This document shows, in pieces, positions 3,904 through 21,282 of a stretch of 52,766 bases of DNA (within the stretch, counting starts at the first letter, position 1; each line of letters begins with the position of its first letter). Source of the stretch: Moorena sp. SIO1G6 (GTDB taxonomy: Bacteria > Cyanobacteriota > Cyanobacteriia > Cyanobacteriales > Coleofasciculaceae). The stretch lies in contig NZ_JAAHFZ010000014.1 of assembly GCF_010672795.1 (NCBI RefSeq), positions 1 through 52,766 on the forward strand, in the 5' to 3' direction. A program made the position numbers and the translations under genes. The notes under the pieces are model-generated. The model made no database searches and was not told the origin of the DNA. It saw only the letters and a program-made list of their open reading frames with translations.

Positions 3904-4080
3904 ATCTCTGTCCTTTTATAAAAATCCCCCAAAGCCGAAAACCCCGTGTCTAATGACCGGGGATGAAGGCTCACAGCGGCTTGACGCGCCTAGAAAAATA
4001 TTTCAGGAAAATCCGGAATTTTAGTCTGGATGTTGTAAAATAAGGGAGTGAACAGTTTAGGTCCCAGACGAAACCTTAGA

Positions 4081-4150
4081 ATAGGGTCGCCTTTATGGTT
4101 TGTCGGCTATGGAAAAAGGGTTAAAACTGTTGTTATAAGGCGACCCTATT
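4081..4150. repeat. Perfect 13-bp-stem hairpin (ATAGGGTCGCCTT...AAGGCGACCCTAT) with a ~44-nt conserved loop, 24 bp upstream of the tnpB start; candidate IS left-end subterminal hairpin
   Basis: Seen directly. The loop is nearly identical to the loop of the hairpin at 4960-5033, while the two stems differ in sequence but both pair perfectly (compensatory change). Confidence 0.6.
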
Positions 4151-4173
4151 CTTACGGTAACTTTAAGAAGCTG

Positions 4174-5520
4174 ATGATCATTTTAGAGTTCAAGGCGAAA
4201 GGAAAAAAACATCAATACTCTGGGATCAACGAGGCTATCCGGACAGTCCAGTTCATCCGTAATAGCTGCCTCAGGTATTGGATGGAAAATAAAGGGGTCA
4301 ACAAATTTGACCTTAATAAGTACAGTGCAGTCCTTGCTAAAAACTTTCCTTTTGCTAATGAATTAAACTCTACTGCTCGTCAGTCTAGTGCTGAAAGAGC
4401 ATGGTCATCAATTGTTCGATTCTTTGATAACTGCAAGAAAAAAGTACCTGGAAAGAAAGGTTTTCCTAAGTTCCAGAAAAACTGCCGCTCAGTGGAGTAT
4501 AAACAGTCTGGATGGAAGTTATCCCCTGACAAGAAGTCAATCACCTTTAGTGATAAAAAGGGTATTGGGAAGCTTAAGCTTAAAGGTACATGGGACTTGT
4601 GGCGCTTGGATAAAAAGGAAATAAAGCGAGTCCGTATAGTTCGCCGGGCTGATGGTTATTATGTCCAGTTTTGTGTTTCAGTTGATATCAAAGAGGAACT
4701 AGAGCCAAGTGGGACAGCTATCGGCTTGGATGTTGGACTAAAATATTTTTACACTGATTCCGCTGGAAAAACTGAACCAAATCCCTGCTTTTACAGAACG
4801 GGAGAAAAACGCCTTAAGTTCTACCAGCGTCGAGTTTCTCGCAAGAAGAAAGGCTCATCCAATCGAAATAAAGCAGTTAATAGACTAGGCAGACAGCACC
4901 TTAAGATAAGTAGGCAACGTGAAGAGAACGCCAAGAGACTGGGAACGAAGTTACCGTAAGAATAAAGAAGCCTTTATGGTTAGTCGGCTATGCATAAAAG
5001 GGTTAAATCTTTGTTATTAAGGCTTCTTTATTCTAAGGTTTCGTCTCCGGCGCGCTGCGTAATCTGTTCTAACGATCTGGTCGCCTAGGTCGACTTAAGA
5101 GCCAAGAACCTAGTAAAAAATCACTGCCTCGCTAAGTCTATTAATGATGCAGGTTGGTATCAGTTTAGGAAATGGATGGAGCACTTTGGCACCAAGTTCG
5201 GAAAGGTAACAGTTGCAGTAAATCCTGCATATACCAGCCAAAACTGTTCCAATTGTGGCGAAGAAGTTAAAAAGTCCCTATCAACTAGGACTCATACGTG
5301 CAAGTGTGGTTGTCAGTTAGATAGAGACCACAACGCCGCAATAAACATCCTTAAGAAAGCCTTGGGTACGGTGGGGCACACCGGAACCTGGATCTTAAAA
5401 GATCTAAACGCTTCAGGAGAATCGGCCTCTACTGTTCTTGGTTCCGGCCAGGTTCAGCAAGCTGGCTCGTTGAATGAAGAATCCCCGCGTATGCGCGACC
5501 GGGGAGTGTCAAAAAACTAG
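4174..5520 (+). pseudogene. tnpB: tnpB (IS605 OrfB / RNA-guided nuclease family) disrupted by a ~130-bp hairpin-containing insertion plus a small deletion
   Basis: The N-terminal part (4174-4959) begins MIILEFKAKGKKHQYSGINEAIRTVQFIRNSCLRYWMENKG, a typical cyanobacterial TnpB N-terminus. The C-terminal part (about 5090-5520, a different frame) reads VDLRAKNLVKNHCLAKSINDAGW...NPAYTSQNCSNCGEEV...CKCGCQLDRDHNAAINIL, i.e. the RuvC-II region, zinc finger and RuvC-III region. About 10-15 residues are missing between the two pieces. Confidence 0.75.
4960..5033. repeat. Second copy of the conserved-loop hairpin (15-bp perfect stem GAATAAAGAAGCCTT...AAGGCTTCTTTATTC) sitting inside the disrupted tnpB
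   Basis: Seen directly. The loop tatggttagtcggctatgcataaaagggttaaatctttgttatt compares with tatggtttgtcggctatggaaaaagggttaaaactgttgttat at 4094-4137. Confidence 0.6.
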
Positions 5521-14646: not shown

Positions 14647-15516
14647 CTAACAATTATTATTTTTAATCCTGCCATTAGGCATAATAGTGTTACAGAAAAT
14701 AGCATCATTTAAGTCAGCCTTAGCTAATTTAGCCTTTTTAAGATTAGCATGGCTGAAATTAGCCTCACTCAAATCAGCATCATGAAAGTCAACACCTTCT
14801 AAATTGGCATAACTTAGGTTGGCGGCTCTCAAGTCAGTATTATACAGTCTTGCACCACTCAAATTAGCATGACTAAGGTTAGCGCCACACAGTTCTTCAT
14901 AACCTAGGTTGACATTTTTCAAGTCTAAACCGCTTAAGTCAGCCTCGGCACAAATAAAGATTGCTCCGGCTTTTGATGGGTTAAATCCAGTCGGAAACTC
15001 AGTGTATGACGTATAGATAGCTTTGGTAAAATTTATACTACTCAGGTCAGCTTTTTTCCAGCCATCAACCCCTAGCATACGGGCATAACTGAGGTTAGCA
15101 TTGCTCAGGTCAGAATCACCTACGTAAACCTCACATAAGGTAGCATAACTAAAATTGGCATCCCTGAGCTTACTAGTAGCTATATAGATTACAGATAAAT
15201 CCGCATAACTCAGATCAGTACCACTAAAATCACAGTTTTCCAAGGTTGATTCAGAGGCTACTATATGACTCAAGTTAGCCTTAGTAAGGTTAGAATTTTC
15301 GATAGTGGTTTCGTATAGGTAAGCATTCCTCAAGTTAGCATGACTTAGATCTACATCATCCCAAGTAGCTTCCTCTAAATCAGCATTACTCAAGTCCGCA
15401 TTTTTTAGACAAACACCCTTGAAATTAGTACTTTTTAAGTTAGCCTTTTTCAAATTAATACCAGAAAAATCTCTTTCACCGGCTTCGTAGCGTTTTAGGA
15501 AGTCATCACGATTCAT
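14647..15516 (-). CDS. Pentapeptide-repeat protein
   Basis: 289 aa dominated by A(D/N)LSxANLxxA pentads (ADLSNADLEEA, ANLSHANLSGARL...). Confidence 0.85.
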   Translation of the reverse strand: MNRDDFLKRYEAGERDFSGINLKKANLKSTNFKGVCLKNADLSNADLEEATWDDVDLSHANLRNAYLYETTIENSNLTKANLSHIVASESTLENCDFSGTDLSYADLSVIYIATSKLRDANFSYATLCEVYVGDSDLSNANLSYARMLGVDGWKKADLSSINFTKAIYTSYTEFPTGFNPSKAGAIFICAEADLSGLDLKNVNLGYEELCGANLSHANLSGARLYNTDLRAANLSYANLEGVDFHDADLSEANFSHANLKKAKLAKADLNDAIFCNTIMPNGRIKNNNC

Positions 15517-16167
15517 AGTATGCCCCTTATTTGTTTAATATTAGATAGTAATCATCCTGATTATATCCTAAAAAAAAATATTAGTATTTTTAGAGGTTGG
15601 GTTAATGATTAATGGTTAATAGTTGTTAGTACTTAATGCTATCAAGCCTAATATAAGGTGGCCTCATACCTCATCGTTAATGTTCCGATCAGCAATCACA
15701 TCTCCTATCCCAGGGGTTTGATGAAATTGCTCCCAACTCCATAAAATCAACGTAGTCATAACGAGTTTGGGTTATTTTGGCAGAACAGAAAAAGAAAGGT
15801 TACTTTAGTTTTATAGCGAGTTCCTTTGCTGTCAGGTTACAAAATAGTTGATTGTTGATTAGGCTTTAGGGATAAACCATGAACTATAGCAATCCTACAT
15901 GAATCCTGATATTTCCTGATCCGAAGCTCCCTTGGTAAAACAATTTTGCTCACAACTGACTTGGGATTTATATAGGCACAATACTGTATCTAAATACCTG
16001 AACATAAATGCTGTTAACTGTGTTGAAACCCTTAACGTTGTTCAACCCCTTTATGTTCTCGGTTCGCCGTTCCCTATTCCCTTATCTGATCAGTCAACTT
16101 TCATTGTGTATGACTACTTACGACCGATGAAGGCAACTTAGTAATCTAGTTCGATTAGACCGAGACT

Positions 16168-16641
16168 ATGAATACAACTGAGCGTAAAACAGAGAAGAAA
16201 ATGGAAGTGCCTAGAACAACTAGTGAAGTGATTCGCATCAAGCCCCAACAGTTTATTCATGTGCTAGACAACAATACTGGTGTTACGCGACTGGAGGTTG
16301 GTCCTCAAACCATTACCCTTCGGGATCACGAGCGGCTGATCTTAAAACCTGAACCGATGATTATTGTGCCGCCTCGATATTATTGTGTGGTGGCTAATCC
16401 ATTACTCCGGGATGAAGACGGTCAACCCATTGCTGATCAGCATGGTCAAATTCGACTGCGCTACGGTGATCTGGAAATTCGTTTCGCGCAAGATCCGTTT
16501 CCCCTTTATCCAAACGAGAAACTGGTAGGGGATTTGACACTCCCCGTTCTTCTAGGACGGGGAGTGTCAAAGGCAGAAAATATAGCCATTGAGTCTACAG
16601 GTCAGGCAACAGCAGAAGCAAGAGCTAAGGAATACTCTTAA
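16168..16641 (+). pseudogene. Major vault protein (MVP) homolog, N-terminal fragment (MVP repeat 1-2)
   Basis: IRIKPQQFIHVLDNNTGVTRLEVGPQTI...VPPRYYCVVANP...[27 protein letters not shown] aligns almost residue-for-residue with the N-terminus of eukaryotic MVP ([28 protein letters not shown]...VPPRHYCTVANP...[27 protein letters not shown]). The homology ends near 16533-16560, where the IS-associated palindrome begins. Confidence 0.7.
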
Positions 16642-18329
16642 ACCGTCATCAATCGGGATAAAACCGAATAAAACGGCCAAGGTGCATTTTATTGATGTCT
16701 GAGTGAGGAGCGGTCAAGTAGCAATTGGAGTCAAGCCTCCCGCTCATCTATCTAGACGTTCCTCACATCCCGGTGAGGAGTTCCTTAAAAGCTTGAGTTT
16801 TGGCATGCTTGCGGTCAAGCCATCCTAGCTTAACCGCGTCAGCTAAAGTCAAATCCATACCTTCTAAGAAACGCGCAGTACGACGCAACAATACTGCCTG
16901 CACTTCAACCCTAGTCATAAACCGGGAGATTCCTTGATCTGTACCACGAGCAAGGATATTCTTCGCAGCATTGTGATCAGCCTGCAACACGACCCCATTA
17001 AATCTGATAAAACTGTCCCCAATCCTTGCTCCCAATAAGGTGCCAGAAAAGGAGTCAATTTGCGACGTGTAGCTTGGCTGGACTTCTGTCACAACCGAAC
17101 CAGTCCAATTAGCCCATTTCTGCAAGGAGTACCGCATTTCTCCTTTCATCCAGCTATTCAACTTGCGAGACATAGCCTTTGACTGGCGTTTATTTTTGAT
17201 TGGTTGCGTTAAATCCTCAGCAAAAATTCTTAGAGATTCTCCTTTGAAGAGGGATTTAGAAGCAGCCCCTATAATCGCCCTCAACTCTGATTGATCTCTT
17301 CTGTAACGACTGTTTTCTGTTTTTCGACTCAGATTATTTTTCAGTATCCGAGCTGATTTAGCTGGATCTATTTTTTCTAGCTTCCTATGTATTGCCCAGA
17401 GCTTTCCTCTGTTCCGATTTTTGGCGCATATTCGATGGCCAAAAGGCCACGCTACGCGAACGGATTTTATGGTTGCTATTTTGCCCAGGTTCTTCCCGTG
17501 TGCCTGACCATCTGAATCATAAAAAGCCTCGGTGTATCCCTTGTCTACTCCTATCGCTCGACGTTCAGGAGGAATCTCAGCTGTCCCGTGATTAACCAAA
17601 AAATGAATCTCAAATCTTGCCAGTAGAGAGTTGTATATTAGTCTAATCTGTCCTTTAATATTTCGATTAGACCTAACTATTAGTTTGTTTCTTTTTCCTC
17701 TTCTGATTCCAGCTAATTCCAATTGATAAGTATAACGAGACAATCGTTTACACGAGTATCCTCCTTGTTGGTATACAACTTGATTCTTGACCCAAGAATG
17801 TCCTCTCTGAAACTCTTTCCTTACAAGTCTGTGCAATAGTGGATTATCCAGAAAAGCTGAAGTTTTGAGTTGCTTAGAGATATCCTTTCTGATCTTCTGG
17901 TTTTCCTTTCCAGGAAACCTCTTATAGATCTTTTTTATGACTGCCTCAATGGAAGCCGCTTGTTGAGCTGTGATAGTTTTAGCTACATCACTGACAGTCC
18001 ATTCCATTAACTTGGAAGGCAAGCCCAGGGACTCAGGCTTCCTGAAGTCCCTGACTTCTGGGTAGGCTTTTTTCCAGTCAAGTCCCCAATGACTTATACT
18101 ACCCAGCTTGTTGTAAGACTCAGACCTGACGACGCCTAGTTTTTTCATCGTAGACAACAGCTCAAGCTCAACCGACTTAGCTATCCCTACAACTGGGACG
18201 ACCTGAGTCGATATCTTCTTTACTGCGCCTACTTTCTTTTGCATCATCAACGGTGTGTACAGCTTTTGCTATATACTGCCATTATAGTCTAGCGCTATAA
18301 AATTGTCAATGTCCAGTTCGCACTATTAA
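16533..18329 (-). mobile_element. IS200/IS605-family TnpB-only element inserted in the MVP gene (the ends are approximate)
   Basis: tnpB lies on the minus strand. The 14-bp perfect palindrome TTTGACACTCCCCG..CGGGGAGTGTCAAA at 16533-16571 shares CGGGGAGTGTCAAA with the 3' end of the other TnpB element (5500-5513). MVP-homologous coding sequence resumes at about 18340. Confidence 0.5.
16763..18250 (-). CDS. tnpB: TnpB-like RNA-guided endonuclease / IS605 OrfB-family transposase accessory protein (long form, zinc-finger cysteines absent)
   Basis: 495 aa. A RuvC-like triad is spaced in the standard way (AIGVDKG ... RIFAEDLT ... VLQADHNAAKNIL). No Cys pairs lie between RuvC-II and RuvC-III. No tnpA is present. 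Confidence 0.7.
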   Translation of the reverse strand: MMMQKKVGAVKKISTQVVPVVGIAKSVELELLSTMKKLGVVRSESYNKLGSISHWGLDWKKAYPEVRDFRKPESLGLPSKLMEWTVSDVAKTITAQQAASIEAVIKKIYKRFPGKENQKIRKDISKQLKTSAFLDNPLLHRLVRKEFQRGHSWVKNQVVYQQGGYSCKRLSRYTYQLELAGIRRGKRNKLIVRSNRNIKGQIRLIYNSLLARFEIHFLVNHGTAEIPPERRAIGVDKGYTEAFYDSDGQAHGKNLGKIATIKSVRVAWPFGHRICAKNRNRGKLWAIHRKLEKIDPAKSARILKNNLSRKTENSRYRRDQSELRAIIGAASKSLFKGESLRIFAEDLTQPIKNKRQSKAMSRKLNSWMKGEMRYSLQKWANWTGSVVTEVQPSYTSQIDSFSGTLLGARIGDSFIRFNGVVLQADHNAAKNILARGTDQGISRFMTRVEVQAVLLRRTARFLEGMDLTLADAVKLGWLDRKHAKTQAFKELLTGM

Positions 18330-18575
18330 ATACAGTTTTGTCCTAATTTTTCGGGACTTGACTGCGAGGCTCACATTAAGAGTGAAGAATACCGACAGAA
18401 AGTAGAAGCAATTGGTCCTCAAACCATTCAAGCGATCGCACAAGCAGGTCCGGAAATGCAGGCAAGACTTCTAGAAGCACTTGGTATCCAGAGTGTTTTG
18501 ATTACCGATGGCAAAAATCCCATCAATCTATTTGGTGCAGCTAATGGTCTGATTAGTCCGCCAACTTCTAACTAA
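18330..18575 (+). pseudogene. Major vault protein homolog, C-terminal fragment
   Basis: The translation ...[60 protein letters not shown] matches the MVP region [58 protein letters not shown]. No start codon is present. The frame opens right after the IS. Confidence 0.7.
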
Positions 18576-18590
18576 GTACATGTGTATCTG

Positions 18591-18675
18591 CTGCGCGCAG
18601 CAGACACAGCGCGCAGCAGACACAGATAGACTGATAACCCAACGCTATCTTACCGGTCTATCTTACCGGTCTATA
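18591..18675. repeat. Tandem direct repeats (GCGCGCAGCAGACACAG x2; CTATCTTACCGGT x2)
   Basis: Seen directly. Confidence 0.7.
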
Positions 18676-18884
18676 TGTGTCGAAGGTTGAGAGTTGAGGT
18701 GTTGCTCAACTCTGTTAATGACCCCTAGTACGAGAAACAGAGCAAATACTACAGCAACACCGATAGCAGTCCACTTGAAAAAAACTAACTTTGGCCGACC
18801 TTTAGCTGGATAACCACAACTGAGGCAAATTTCATCGTTGGTGCTGGTTAAAGACCCACAAACGTTACACTGTTCTAAAGCCAT
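18663..18884 (-). CDS. Small zinc-ribbon membrane protein (CxxC...CxxC followed by a TM helix)
   Basis: MALEQCNVCGSLTSTNDEICLSCGYP..., then IGVAVVFALFLVLGVI. Confidence 0.45.
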   Translation of the reverse strand: MALEQCNVCGSLTSTNDEICLSCGYPAKGRPKLVFFKWTAIGVAVVFALFLVLGVINRVEQHLNSQPSTHIDR

Positions 18885-19080
18885 AGTTCTTGGAAATCTC
18901 TACCGTCATAAGATAACTGAAAAAATTATCAGGTGGGTAGAGTACTTTGAGCCTTCCTTACCAACTCCTTGATGCCCAAGTTGCTTAGTTCAAGTGGGTA
19001 GGTTACAAAAAAATCAGGGCACAAGGGCAAACCCCCAGGTATGAAGCCTGTGACCAATTACCGATTACCCATTCCTAATC

Positions 19081-21282
19081 ATGGCCTCAGGACACAATTT
19101 AATTCTGGATCTAACCACAGTTCTAGGGGCTTCTGCTCTGGGAGGCTACCTTGCCAATCGGCTACGTCAACCTGTACTTTTAGGCTATTTAGCCAGTGGT
19201 TTATTGGTTGGTCCGTTTGGTCTTAAACTCGTAGGCGAATTAGAACAAGTCAAATCCCTTGCTGAAATTGGGATTGTTTTTTTGTTATTCACCTATGGGG
19301 TAGAATTTTCTCTATCCCAGCTTAAACGATTTAAAGATATTGTCCTGAAAGGGAGTTTACTGCAAATTAGTCTCACTATTACCCTAGTTGCAGTTTTAGC
19401 CAATGGACTTGGTTGGGTTGACGGATTTACTCCGGGAATAATGCTCGGATTCATCATCTCCCTTTCCTCTACCTCAGTAGTTCTTAAAACCCTGATGGAG
19501 AGAGGAGAAACCAATACCCTTCATGGTCAAGTGATGCTGGCAATTTTGATTGCTCAAGACCTTAGTTTAGGTCTGATGTTAGCCGTCATACCCGCCCTTC
19601 AGCAGCCCTCAGATATTGGCTCAGCTTTAGTTGTTGCTTTACTCAAAGCGTTGGTGTTTCTAGCTGCTGCTCTAGCCGCCGGTCGCTGGATAGTTCCCCA
19701 TCTCATTAAATATATTGCCCGCACTGAAAACAGTGAGTTATTTCTCATCACAGTAATTGCCCTGTGTTTAGGGATTGCTTTGATTACTGCTGGACTTGGT
19801 CTATCCGTTGAAATGGGAGCATTTGTGGCAGGATTAATGATGGCTGAAATTGATTATGCTGACCAAGCAGTTGCCAAAATAATTCCCCTTAAAGACACGT
19901 TTGTATGTCTATTTTTTGCATCCATAGGAATGCTCATTGAGCCAGAAGTGCTGCTCGATAACTTCGGCATAATTATCGGTTTAGTGATGTTAGTAATGGG
20001 TGGAAAAGCAGCCATTATCCTACCGATTGTGCTGAAATTTGGCTATTCCTTTAAAACTGCTTTTATTGCTAGTTTTGGTCTCAATCAAATTGGAGAATTT
20101 TCCTTTGTATTAGCGGTGGTTGGCTTTGAGTTAGGATTTATCACTAGGGATCAGTATCTACTCCTGGTGGGAACCACAGCAATTACCCTAGTCCTGACAC
20201 CAATGTCGCTGAGATGGTCTCCCCGAATAGCAGACCACCTGGTAAATCTGCCGTTTCTGAAAAACTACCTGCGTCAGTTTCGGGGCACTAAAGCTTTGTC
20301 AATTCCAGAAACGATTTGTAATCATGTGGTAGTGGCTGGCTATGGACGAGTGGGGCGAGTACTGGTCAACATCCTGCGCAATCAAGGGCATGAGGTACTA
20401 GTGATTGAAAATAGCGAAGCTGCTATTCAACGATTAAGACATGAAAAAATTCCTTATATGTTTGGGGATGCTCACTCGGAACTGGTGTTAGAAAAAGCCC
20501 ATCTAGAAAAAGCTAAAGCCCTAGCCATTGCCCTACCCGATCCTGGCAGTACCCGCTTGTTGCTCAAACGTGCCCTCAAGTTTGCCCCAGGACTGGATAT
20601 TGTGGCTCGTTCTCACAAAAATAGCGAAATTGACCTACTCACCCAGTTAGGGGCGCGGGAAGTAGTGCAACCAGAATTTGAGGCAGCATTGGAAATGGGA
20701 GCCCATGTGCTAGTAGCACTGGGAGAATCCCAAGGTATGATTCAGTCTGTGATCAATCGGATTCACCAAGACCGCTATTTGAGTGTACGACCTGAACAAG
20801 CTACCTATTCAAAGCAGCAAGACATCACTGATGTTGCTGAAGAACTCCACAGTGAGTGGGTGACCTTGAGTCAAACTTCCCGTCTAGATTGGGTAACTCT
20901 GGCAGCAGCAGATATCCGTAACGTGACTGGGGTAACAGTTTTGACAATTCAACAAGGTAATGATATCGTCCACTACCCACAAGGTAAGATGACGTTGCGT
21001 TCAGGGGATCGATTGCTAGTTGTTGGGGAACCGGAAGAATTAGCAGCGTTTAGAGACTGGATCGAAAGTCGCAGTTTCCTTAGTGAGGGATCTAAGCATT
21101 GGGTAACTTTGGTAGAGAATTCAAGTTTGGTCGGTATGAAGCCAATTGATCTCCAGCATCAATACAATGTGATGGTTCAGGCGTTGCGTAGACAAGGGAA
21201 ACTATATAATCCGGTGGATGAAGCTGGAGTATTGCAGGTGGGGGATTGTGTGTTGTTGTCTGGGGAATGGGATGAGGACTGA
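19081..21282 (+). CDS. Monovalent cation:proton antiporter-2 (CPA2, KefB/KefC-like) with C-terminal TrkA-N (RCK/KTN) and TrkA-C domains
   Basis: 733 aa with an N-terminal polytopic Na+/H+-exchanger-like domain. The Rossmann motif VVVAGYGRVGRVL lies in the RCK domain, which is followed by a TrkA-C-like segment. Confidence 0.8.
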   Translation: MASGHNLILDLTTVLGASALGGYLANRLRQPVLLGYLASGLLVGPFGLKLVGELEQVKSLAEIGIVFLLFTYGVEFSLSQLKRFKDIVLKGSLLQISLTITLVAVLANGLGWVDGFTPGIMLGFIISLSSTSVVLKTLMERGETNTLHGQVMLAILIAQDLSLGLMLAVIPALQQPSDIGSALVVALLKALVFLAAALAAGRWIVPHLIKYIARTENSELFLITVIALCLGIALITAGLGLSVEMGAFVAGLMMAEIDYADQAVAKIIPLKDTFVCLFFASIGMLIEPEVLLDNFGIIIGLVMLVMGGKAAIILPIVLKFGYSFKTAFIASFGLNQIGEFSFVLAVVGFELGFITRDQYLLLVGTTAITLVLTPMSLRWSPRIADHLVNLPFLKNYLRQFRGTKALSIPETICNHVVVAGYGRVGRVLVNILRNQGHEVLVIENSEAAIQRLRHEKIPYMFGDAHSELVLEKAHLEKAKALAIALPDPGSTRLLLKRALKFAPGLDIVARSHKNSEIDLLTQLGAREVVQPEFEAALEMGAHVLVALGESQGMIQSVINRIHQDRYLSVRPEQATYSKQQDITDVAEELHSEWVTLSQTSRLDWVTLAAADIRNVTGVTVLTIQQGNDIVHYPQGKMTLRSGDRLLVVGEPEELAAFRDWIESRSFLSEGSKHWVTLVENSSLVGMKPIDLQHQYNVMVQALRRQGKLYNPVDEAGVLQVGDCVLLSGEWDED

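Follow-up and report, generated by a model that had tools for sequence, protein, structure and literature searches.

What breaks a gene for major vault protein (MVP), and do the pieces left behind tell how many events were needed? This question is raised by positions 16168-18575 of a 52,766-nt stretch of DNA from Moorena sp. SIO1G6 (forward strand of contig NZ_JAAHFZ010000014.1, assembly GCF_010672795.1), which in its full length is called the window throughout. An earlier note, drawn from the letters alone, had described the region as the relic of a eukaryote-like MVP gene occupied by a TnpB-type insertion sequence (IS) in the opposite orientation, and had explained it by a single insertion accompanied by an internal deletion of about 1.9 kb. 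Our analysis points to a different history, in which the region is a non-functional MVP pseudogene carrying two separate lesions, each marked by a different TnpB-type element; we put the probability of this reading at roughly 0.85. Breakpoints were located by blastn of the window against the locus of Moorena sp. SIO3I8 (hereafter L002), in which MVP is intact, together with reading of the junction sequences and codon mapping. The features so defined are collected in Table 1.

Both ends of the relic are recognizably MVP, as the earlier note had read them. The N-terminal open reading frame (ORF) matches Pfam Vault_2 (PF17794, E = 1e-26), and about residues 17-125 of this 157-amino-acid (aa) ORF align with residues 3-112 of rat and human MVP in the PDB with E values of 7e-37 to 1e-33. 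Retained DNA of the MVP locus begins upstream of the start codon, the segment 16098-16533 corresponding in blastn to L002 9931-10366 and ending with codon 122. At the other end, 64 aa translated from 18387-18575 match MVP residues 794-850 (E about 1e-16) and include the cap-ring motif AIGPxTI...AGPEMQ...LITDG..PINLF. This C-terminal fragment has no start codon, is out of frame with the N-terminal fragment and is separated from it by the IS. A third remnant, an island of 58 bp that is in frame with the N-terminal fragment and gives a weak match to MVP residues 711-729, survives between the two. The earlier statement that only an IS lies between the terminal fragments thus holds for the presence of the IS and fails for the word only, since the MVP island and a 39-bp palindrome are found there as well.

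An intact ortholog was sought in relatives and found at the syntenic position in SIO3I8, where an uninterrupted ORF of 879 aa is preceded by a pentapeptide-repeat gene in the opposite orientation and followed by a gene for a 733-aa Kef-type antiporter. The encoded protein carries four Vault domains, Vault_2, Vault_3, Vault_4 and MVP_shoulder (PF11978), and its residues 17-873 align with residues 3-849 of human and rat MVP (E about 1e-299). Comparison of this gene with the broken copy bears out the view that the window holds an inactivated MVP gene with a TnpB-type IS inside it. Measured against the same gene, 612 codons are missing in lesion 1 and 58 in lesion 2, which removes repeats R3-R9, the shoulder and most of the cap-helix, so the architecture of a complete MVP in one ORF is absent from the window locus. 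Lesion 1 exchanges 1836 nt for 39 nt, a net change of -599 codons, and the N-terminal fragment, the filler and the island consequently stay in one reading frame. The resulting chimeric ORF reads ...VGDLT LPVLLGRGVSK AENIAIESTGQATAEARAK before it enters the IS, and is recorded in databases as a hypothetical protein (WP_287312621.1; homolog in Moorena producens JHB, AOY78639.1 / A0A1D9FTE0). Judged from its predicted product, the relic is not expected to form a vault shell, as the 157-aa ORF keeps just repeats R1-R2 plus junk.

Table 1. Coordinates of the MVP remnants, lesions and TnpB-type elements in the window (L002, locus of Moorena sp. SIO3I8 with intact MVP)
Feature	Position in the window	Strand	Remarks
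MVP fragment A, start codon to codon 122 (vault repeats R1-R2)	16168..16533	+	95.6% identical to L002 9931-10366
MVP island, codons 735-753 + 1 nt, cap-helix AENIAIESTGQATAEARAK	16573..16630	+	96.6% identical to L002 12203-12260
MVP fragment C, codon 811 position 3 to stop (cap-helix end and cap-ring)	18368..18575	+	96.6% identical to L002 12433 onward
Chimeric 157-aa ORF	16168..16641	+	Fragment A, 13 palindrome-encoded residues, island, 3 IS-encoded residues, stop
Lesion 1	16534-16572 (39 bp)		Replaces L002 10367-12202 (1836 bp), exactly codons 123-734
Lesion 2	16631-18367 (1737 bp)		Replaces L002 12261-12432 (172 bp), codon 754 position 2 to codon 811 position 2
39-bp filler, palindrome TTGACACTCCCCG-TTCTTCTAGGA-CGGGGAGTGTCAA (plus AG)	16534..16572	.	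Replaces codons 123-734
Complete TnpB-only IS (IS1), 1737 bp	16631..18367	-	Homology to five Moorena copies (78-81% nt) ends at the same borders
tnpB ORF of IS1, 495 codons from TTG (annotated 493 aa)	16763..18250	-	
IS1 right end, ...CGGTTTAAGAGTATTCC, omega-RNA-like structure	16631..16830	-	RNAalifold, 6 copies
IS1 left end	18251..18367	-	GCC directly 5' on tnpB strand (plus-strand GGC 18368-18370)
24-nt hairpin mini-insertion TTCGCGTAGCGTGGCCTTTTGGCC (tnpB strand)	17437..17460	-	8 in-frame residues VRVAWPFG
Broken copy of a second family (IS2)	3920..5512	+	Left end after TTTAT (3915-3919); hairpin GAATCCCCG...CGGGGAGTGTCAA 5478-5512

The filler of lesion 1 is a perfect palindrome (DNA fold of -18.8 kcal/mol, z = -7.5) that is identical in M. 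producens JHB, and its relatives reveal where it comes from. A related motif, TTGACACTCCCCG-loop-CGGGGATTCTT, occurs at window positions 5478-5512 and, in the MVP gene of Moorena bouillonii PNG (locus L001), precisely at the border of a 453-bp insert. Metagenomes were scanned with the pattern TTGACACTCCCCG-N6-16-CGGGGA, which returned at least 120 stretches, and 85 matches were examined. In 83 of these 85, the sequence on one side is unrelated between copies up to TTGAC and that on the other side belongs to one of several distinct conserved families; pairwise alignments between copies begin, with few exceptions, within a few nucleotides of TTGAC. Wherever a copy reached far enough (roughly twenty cases), an opposite-strand ORF of about 400 aa, the size of TnpB, ends near this terminus, within about 130 nt in the copies measured, and each of the three such ORFs that were scanned contains OrfB_IS605 and TNB. 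Miniature inverted-repeat transposable elements of 300-450 bp possess the same end, and their opposite end follows TTAT/TTTAT. By sequence comparison, we identify the motif as the hairpin (...GAATCCCCG-loop-CGGGGAGTGTCAA) that closes the right end of canonical cyanobacterial IS605-type TnpB elements. In the family referred to here as IS2, the hairpin takes the form ...GAATCCCCG-N10-12-CGGGGAGTGTCAA and stands 3' of a tnpB gene with OrfB_IS605 and TNB. The broken IS2 copy in the window has a tnpB split into 4048-4959 (303 aa, OrfB_IS605, E = 4.5e-15) and 5176-5520 (114 aa, TNB, E = 2.9e-18). Its right end lies immediately upstream of an ammonium-transporter-like ORF.

Compared with such an end, the filler carries the terminal 13 nt CGGGGAGTGTCAA on both strands, with the complement of the outer arm where the inner arm GAATCCCCG would stand; it thus derives from a right end without being an intact one. 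A canonical IS2 insertion was rejected as the source of the palindrome, because TTAT/TTTAT is absent from both strands of the intact MVP junction. The palindrome would rather be a scar or by-product of IS2 family activity, and its most likely origin is fold-back or template switching at the right-end quasi-palindrome, which may have been coupled to the large deletion; template-switch mutagenesis at quasi-palindromes was reportedly described by Ripley in 1982 and by the Lovett laboratory. The 7-mer at the centre of the palindrome, CTTCTAG, is also found 8 nt upstream of the right breakpoint in L002, a coincidence that we judged to be due to chance (roughly 0.14). No comparable palindromic filler was found at the deletion junctions of other decayed MVP genes (L051, L069-L072). 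The only other solo perfect palindrome found, TTGACACTCCCCG-GTCTAAAGACG-CGGGGAGTGTCAA, is located at 3221-3259 of L106, an unrelated cyanobacterial contig from a metagenome, where it occupies the spacer separating genes that resemble rsmB and folB. Its loop matches the common local right-end variant and the loop of the window palindrome resembles the M. bouillonii right end AGGACGGGGA, which suggests that solo palindromes arise independently from resident elements and not by the spread of one element.

Lesion 2 is marked by a second type of element. The ends of IS1 were set by alignment with five further Moorena copies (L074, L075, L078, L079 and L082), homology to which starts or stops at window positions 18367/18370 and 16632; as it stops exactly at the borders of non-MVP sequence, IS1 is complete. 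Neither IS1 nor any of the other five copies has an adjoining tnpA gene (a genome-wide tnpA search was not part of the comparison), hence IS1 is a TnpB-only, IS1341-like element. Its TnpB matches Pfam Cas12f1-like_TNB (E = 2e-6) and has no OrfB_IS605 Pfam match, scores 68 bits (E = 9e-19) against NCBIfam guided_TnpB, below the model cutoff of 100, and gives a weak match to Cas12f/TnpB in the PDB. The RuvC motifs are GVDKG (234), AEDL (344) and ADHNAA (424). The four zinc-finger cysteines (CxxC...CxxC) are all lacking from the corresponding region in all 7 family members aligned, and the whole window protein contains just two cysteines, at positions 167 and 275; as far as this alignment goes, loss of the zinc finger is a trait of the family and not decay of the window copy. 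The family has expanded in Moorena: a protein search returned 611 relatives at E <= 1e-20, the best 120 of which are nearly all from Moorena (69-84% identity). Copy L074 has an extra 8-aa insert, TVREAWPT, beside the RuvC-II glutamate and reads ASDL there. Folding of the last 200 nt of six copies with RNAalifold yields 55 pairs, 10 of them with compensatory changes, a conserved right-end structure that is consistent with an omega-RNA. A search of 15500-19100 against Rfam at E <= 1 found no known omega-RNA family, only chance matches of miRNA hairpins to the palindrome and the terminator, and megablast of the IS region against the plasmids of PLSDB gave no match.

The borders of IS1 also bear on how 172 bp of MVP were lost. 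On the tnpB strand, GCC directly precedes the left end in 6 of 6 copies, and in the window this GCC is MVP sequence, given that it is present in intact L002. A second GCC stands at the other junction, where the intact gene, on this strand, runs into the right-end flank as ...CTTCAGCC/TTAGCTCT... (the slash marks the start of the flank), and intact alleles read CAGCC/TTAGCTCT... at this place. On the tnpB strand, the six IS1 copies end in ...CGGTTTAAGAGTAT(C/T)CC. The two ends are not inverted repeats, and the dinucleotide CC is common to both junctions, so a 2-bp duplication is possible. Taken by their sequence, the two junctions have the appearance of true insertion sites, each at a target motif and some 170 nt from the other, a spacing for which transposase chemistry would be the best explanation of the 172-bp loss and random deletion a poorer fit. 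Under Y1-transposase chemistry, the right end of IS1 would have joined a nearby second target site and released a 172-nt circle, with the chromosomal right-end junction in the role that the circle junction has in the integration reaction. Two IS insertions followed by IS-IS recombination would be an equivalent route. This proposal is based on the established mechanism of IS608 (Ton-Hoang 2005, Barabas 2008, as cited in PMC3116915).

Could one event nevertheless have produced the whole structure? The model of the earlier note, in which insertion of one TnpB-type IS created a single internal deletion of about 1.9 kb, accommodates the position of the IS between N- and C-terminal fragments and the overall absence of about 2.0 kb of MVP. 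It is contradicted by the alignment with L002 and very improbable, since 58 bp of MVP (codons 735-753) survive between the large deletion and the IS, the two junctions being separated by this distance, since the IS replaces just 172 bp, and since the large deletion has a junction of its own that holds a palindrome from a different IS family. The 1836-bp deletion was thus not caused by IS1 in any simple sense. Self-cleavage by TnpB at its own right-end junction was also considered as the cause of lesion 1, and rejected because the 58-bp flank is intact. It might alternatively be supposed that a short protein with the MVP N-domain is the native and functional state, a possibility that the earlier note had kept in view. 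The 157-aa ORF is indeed open and kept in four assemblies, and lesion 1 with its filler preserves the reading frame. The tail of this ORF is, however, encoded by the palindrome and the IS, C-terminal MVP DNA persists beyond the IS without a start codon, further proteins of 879 and 863 aa are 97-98% identical to SIO3I8 MVP, and about 55 of 72 bacterial loci (see below) have a single near-full-length match, most of them uninterrupted. With an 879-aa ortholog of full architecture at the same locus, the short protein is not the native state, and we regard this alternative as extremely improbable. More weight belongs to the idea that the 39-bp palindrome is an autonomous mini-element of the REPIN or PATE kind, which was inserted alone and has nothing to do with the 1836-bp deletion. 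Small hairpin elements are mobile in the Moorena genome of the window, and the intergenic solo palindrome of L106 has the same design. Such an origin is still unlikely, because only 1 of the 83 other sampled motif copies is a solo palindrome, the 52.8-kb window contains just two palindrome arms and one canonical right end, the loops of the two solo copies resemble local right-end variants, and the palindrome sits exactly at the deletion junction.

The same allele occurs in four assemblies that represent two lineages: the window, GCA_010671945.1 (99.95% identical over 7.5 kb), Moorena sp. SIO3B2 (99.7% identical) and M. producens JHB, a cultured strain in whose closed genome (CP017708.2) both IS junctions and the palindrome are present. 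The window belongs to a metagenome-assembled genome (MAG), and palindromes and IS copies are typical sites of mis-assembly; since the closed JHB genome and two more independent assemblies show the identical structure, the chance that the locus is an artefact of assembly or binning is practically negligible. In the flanks, 165 of 4731 positions (3.5%) distinguish JHB from the window, against only 4 of 1951 positions (0.2%; Poisson p = 3e-24) in the core 16441-18391, which takes in the last part of fragment A, the palindrome and island, and the IS in its entirety. In their flanks, the window, JHB, SIO3I8 with its intact MVP and M. bouillonii with its otherwise broken MVP are about equally distant, 1-5.6% apart. 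This disparity between core and flanks suggests that the damaged core is a young haplotype in diverged backgrounds and that the null allele was recently exchanged between them by homologous recombination. Vertical inheritance from an ancestor of JHB and SIO1G6, with imports into the flanks or gene conversion of the IS accounting for the lower core divergence, has in its favour that flank recombination is plausible in Moorena. We consider it quite unlikely, as two independent imports would have had to stop within ~190 bp and ~24 bp of the IS, and the flank distance between JHB and the window equals that to lineages with an intact or differently broken MVP. Conversion by paralogs cannot explain the low divergence either, for the nearest other IS copies are only 78-84% identical and unable to homogenise the window IS, and the low-divergence tract includes non-IS DNA.

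Several observations weigh against the account of two IS-associated lesions followed by allelic transfer. No intermediate allele was found, be it an IS with the 172 bp still present, an entire IS2 at codon 122 or the palindrome with no deletion, so that the order of events and both deletion mechanisms are inferred. The chemistry proposed for lesion 2 assumes a transposase acting in trans, there being no tnpA next to any IS1 copy. GCC is a short motif, present five times in the 174-nt interval, and the chance of a coincidental endpoint is about 3%; alternatively, GCC could form the opening 3 nt of the element and be no target motif at all, and the last two nucleotides (CC) at the right-end junction can be assigned to either IS or MVP. 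The TnpB family of IS1 is devoid of zinc-finger cysteines, and its TnpB/omega-RNA activity and target-adjacent motif (TAM) are putative. Finally, the tract of low divergence extends beyond the IS by just ~190 bp on the left (p about 0.01 when taken alone) and ~24 bp on the right.

How could a null allele have moved between lineages? The putative guide of IS1 is its right-end flank, TTAGCTCTTGCTTCTGCTG... (minus strand, 16628 downward). GCC followed by sequence that matches this flank is found in intact alleles (24/24 in M. bouillonii, one mismatch in SIO3I8), and intact MVP carries GCC+TTAGCTCTTGCTTCTGCTGT, a candidate TnpB target. Because the flank matches intact alleles directly after GCC, homing by TnpB and omega-RNA could have aided the spread. 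TnpB loaded with a flank-derived guide would cut intact MVP alleles or chromosome copies, and repair from an IS-bearing copy would carry the damaged core, including the 1.8-kb deletion and the palindrome, into new backgrounds. TnpB/omega-RNA complexes cut empty sites through a motif-plus-target geometry (PMC8612924; PMC10055086), and RNA-guided drive by IS elements in multicopy replicons has been proposed (bioRxiv 10.1101/2025.02.20.638934). If true, such homing would explain a null haplotype with 0.2% divergence in Moorena lineages that are 3.5% diverged. The bolder view that IS1 acts as a homing, gene-drive-like element and, separately, that the symmetrised hairpin, encountered two times independently, is a reproducible IS605-family scar marking IS-associated deletions we hold to be unlikely on the present sequence comparisons.

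Whether the disrupted gene is itself exceptional depends on how widespread MVP is in bacteria, where the earlier note had taken it to be very rare. A restrictive pattern scan for relatives of the N-terminal fragment, with one genome per GTDB species, returned 72 loci, which belong mostly to filamentous cyanobacteria and otherwise to some filamentous Chloroflexota and relatives of Thiomargarita/Beggiatoa. In tblastn with the SIO3I8 protein, the single near-full-length matches have 65-84% identity. A fused N+C protein used as query yielded only matches shorter than 400 aa, mostly on short contigs, and a full-length query was needed to obtain the real distribution; this returned 2536 proteins at E <= 1e-50, the named ones being mostly 'colicin uptake protein' (NCBI) or 'major vault protein' (JGI). 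MVP is therefore common and usually intact in filamentous cyanobacteria, in keeping with the published homologs, which include F4Y3B4 (879 aa) of Lyngbya majuscula / Moorea producens 3L (Daly et al. 2013, PMC3762200; see also Sokolskyi 2019, bioRxiv 10.1101/872010). The suggestion that the relic could serve as a taxonomic clue proved apt, as it points to Moorena. One full-length MVP, 79% identical to the Moorena protein, lies on a contig labelled as Actinomycetota MAG69 (L009, JBLNEP010000122.1), which is probably a mis-binned cyanobacterial contig. Among the 72 loci no conserved neighbour gene of MVP was found, the sole large cluster being a single-linkage lump of generic kinase and response-regulator proteins.

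About nine or ten MVP loci have decayed by frameshifts or internal deletions (L001, L039, L051, L057, L066 and L069-L072). MVP loss is therefore recurrent in cyanobacteria and the window locus is one more case. The decayed loci other than L001 span Dapis, Floridaenema, Phormidium sp. CCY1219, Microcoleus vaginatus, Hormoscilla, Okeania and others. In M. bouillonii PNG (L001 11420-12121), MVP was disrupted independently by inserts at about codons 473-605: roughly 200 bp with a masked run of N is followed by 45 bp of MVP and then by the 453-bp insert, which replaces 351 bp of MVP and starts with an IS2-type right-end hairpin.

Other small features accompany the locus. The 24-nt hairpin unit within tnpB (Table 1) was inserted at TCNG^ATCG and is absent from the otherwise 99.8%-identical JHB copy; the same insert occupies the same site in L074 and L076, which are only about 81% identical, and the unit is repeated three times in tandem at L002 7216-7319. 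It looks like a cyanobacterial small dispersed repeat (SDR) with a site preference, or like the result of conversion between copies; SDRs were reportedly described by Elhai and colleagues in 2008. An inverted repeat of 24 nt (18575-18598 / 18609-18632) lies just 3' of the MVP stop, within 18575-18670, along with two tandem duplications, one of 16 nt (18593-18624) and one of 13 nt (18645-18670), and the stretch following the stop is the most diverged part relative to JHB (23 substitutions in 300 bp). On the minus strand, 18663-18884 encodes an ORF of 73 aa that has a zinc-ribbon motif at its N-terminus and a single hydrophobic helix; it is kept between MVP and the Kef-type antiporter gene in all Moorena loci examined.

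In sum, this is ordinary IS-associated gene decay with instructive details: the gene family, both IS types and pseudogenisation by IS elements are all known. What stands out is a codon-exact deletion sealed by a symmetrised right-end hairpin, IS junctions that fall at two motifs, and evidence for the movement of a null allele, which together make the locus a compact natural case of TnpB-type adjacent deletions, null-allele movement and possible omega-RNA-guided homing. Among prokaryotic proteins, cyanobacterial MVP is the nearest relative of the eukaryotic vault shell, and natural knock-outs are useful for the study of its function. Since JHB is cultured and has a closed genome, it is a ready-made MVP-null strain, for which SIO3I8 and 3L, with their intact genes, can serve as comparison, and this may be the most practically useful outcome of our analysis.

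Set beside known systems, the fragments in the window match residues 3-112, 711-729 and 794-850 of eukaryotic MVP (rat 4V60/4HL8, human), and compared with eukaryotic and published cyanobacterial proteins the window copy is without 670 of 879 codons. In contrast to the eukaryotic vault, MVP at the bacterial loci that were examined has no conserved partner gene linked to it, vPARP/TEP1-like or other. The palindrome is like REP, REPIN and other hairpin repeats derived from right ends of IS200-like elements (PMC3116915) in that its building block is the right-end hairpin of an IS605-type element, the expected recognition site of a Y1 transposase, and like the products of quasi-palindrome mutagenesis in that its outer arms resemble an imperfect hairpin made perfect. 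It is unlike REPINs, which are doublets of about 100 nt, tied to RAYT, intergenic and present in high copy number, whereas the palindromes described here are single hairpins of 37-39 nt in low copy number, with the window copy at a deletion junction. The 24-nt unit agrees with SDRs, as these are said to be, in its hairpin, its in-frame position within an ORF, its recurrent site and its tandem arrangement elsewhere.

IS1 itself resembles elements of the IS1341 type by its single tnpB, the RuvC D/E/D residues, the TNB domain and the lack of terminal inverted repeats. IS200/IS605 TnpB and its omega-RNA have been characterised for ISDra2 and for Geobacillus IS605 (PMC8612924; PMC10055086). Unlike these, IS1 belongs to a divergent family in which the zinc-finger cysteines were lost, the putative TAM is just GCC and no tnpA is adjacent. 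Its structured 3' end, which overlaps the end of the ORF, and the short conserved motif 5' of its left end may correspond to the omega-RNA and TAM of ISDra2-type elements, and its right-end flank stands directly after the same motif in intact alleles, which would be the geometry of a TAM plus target.

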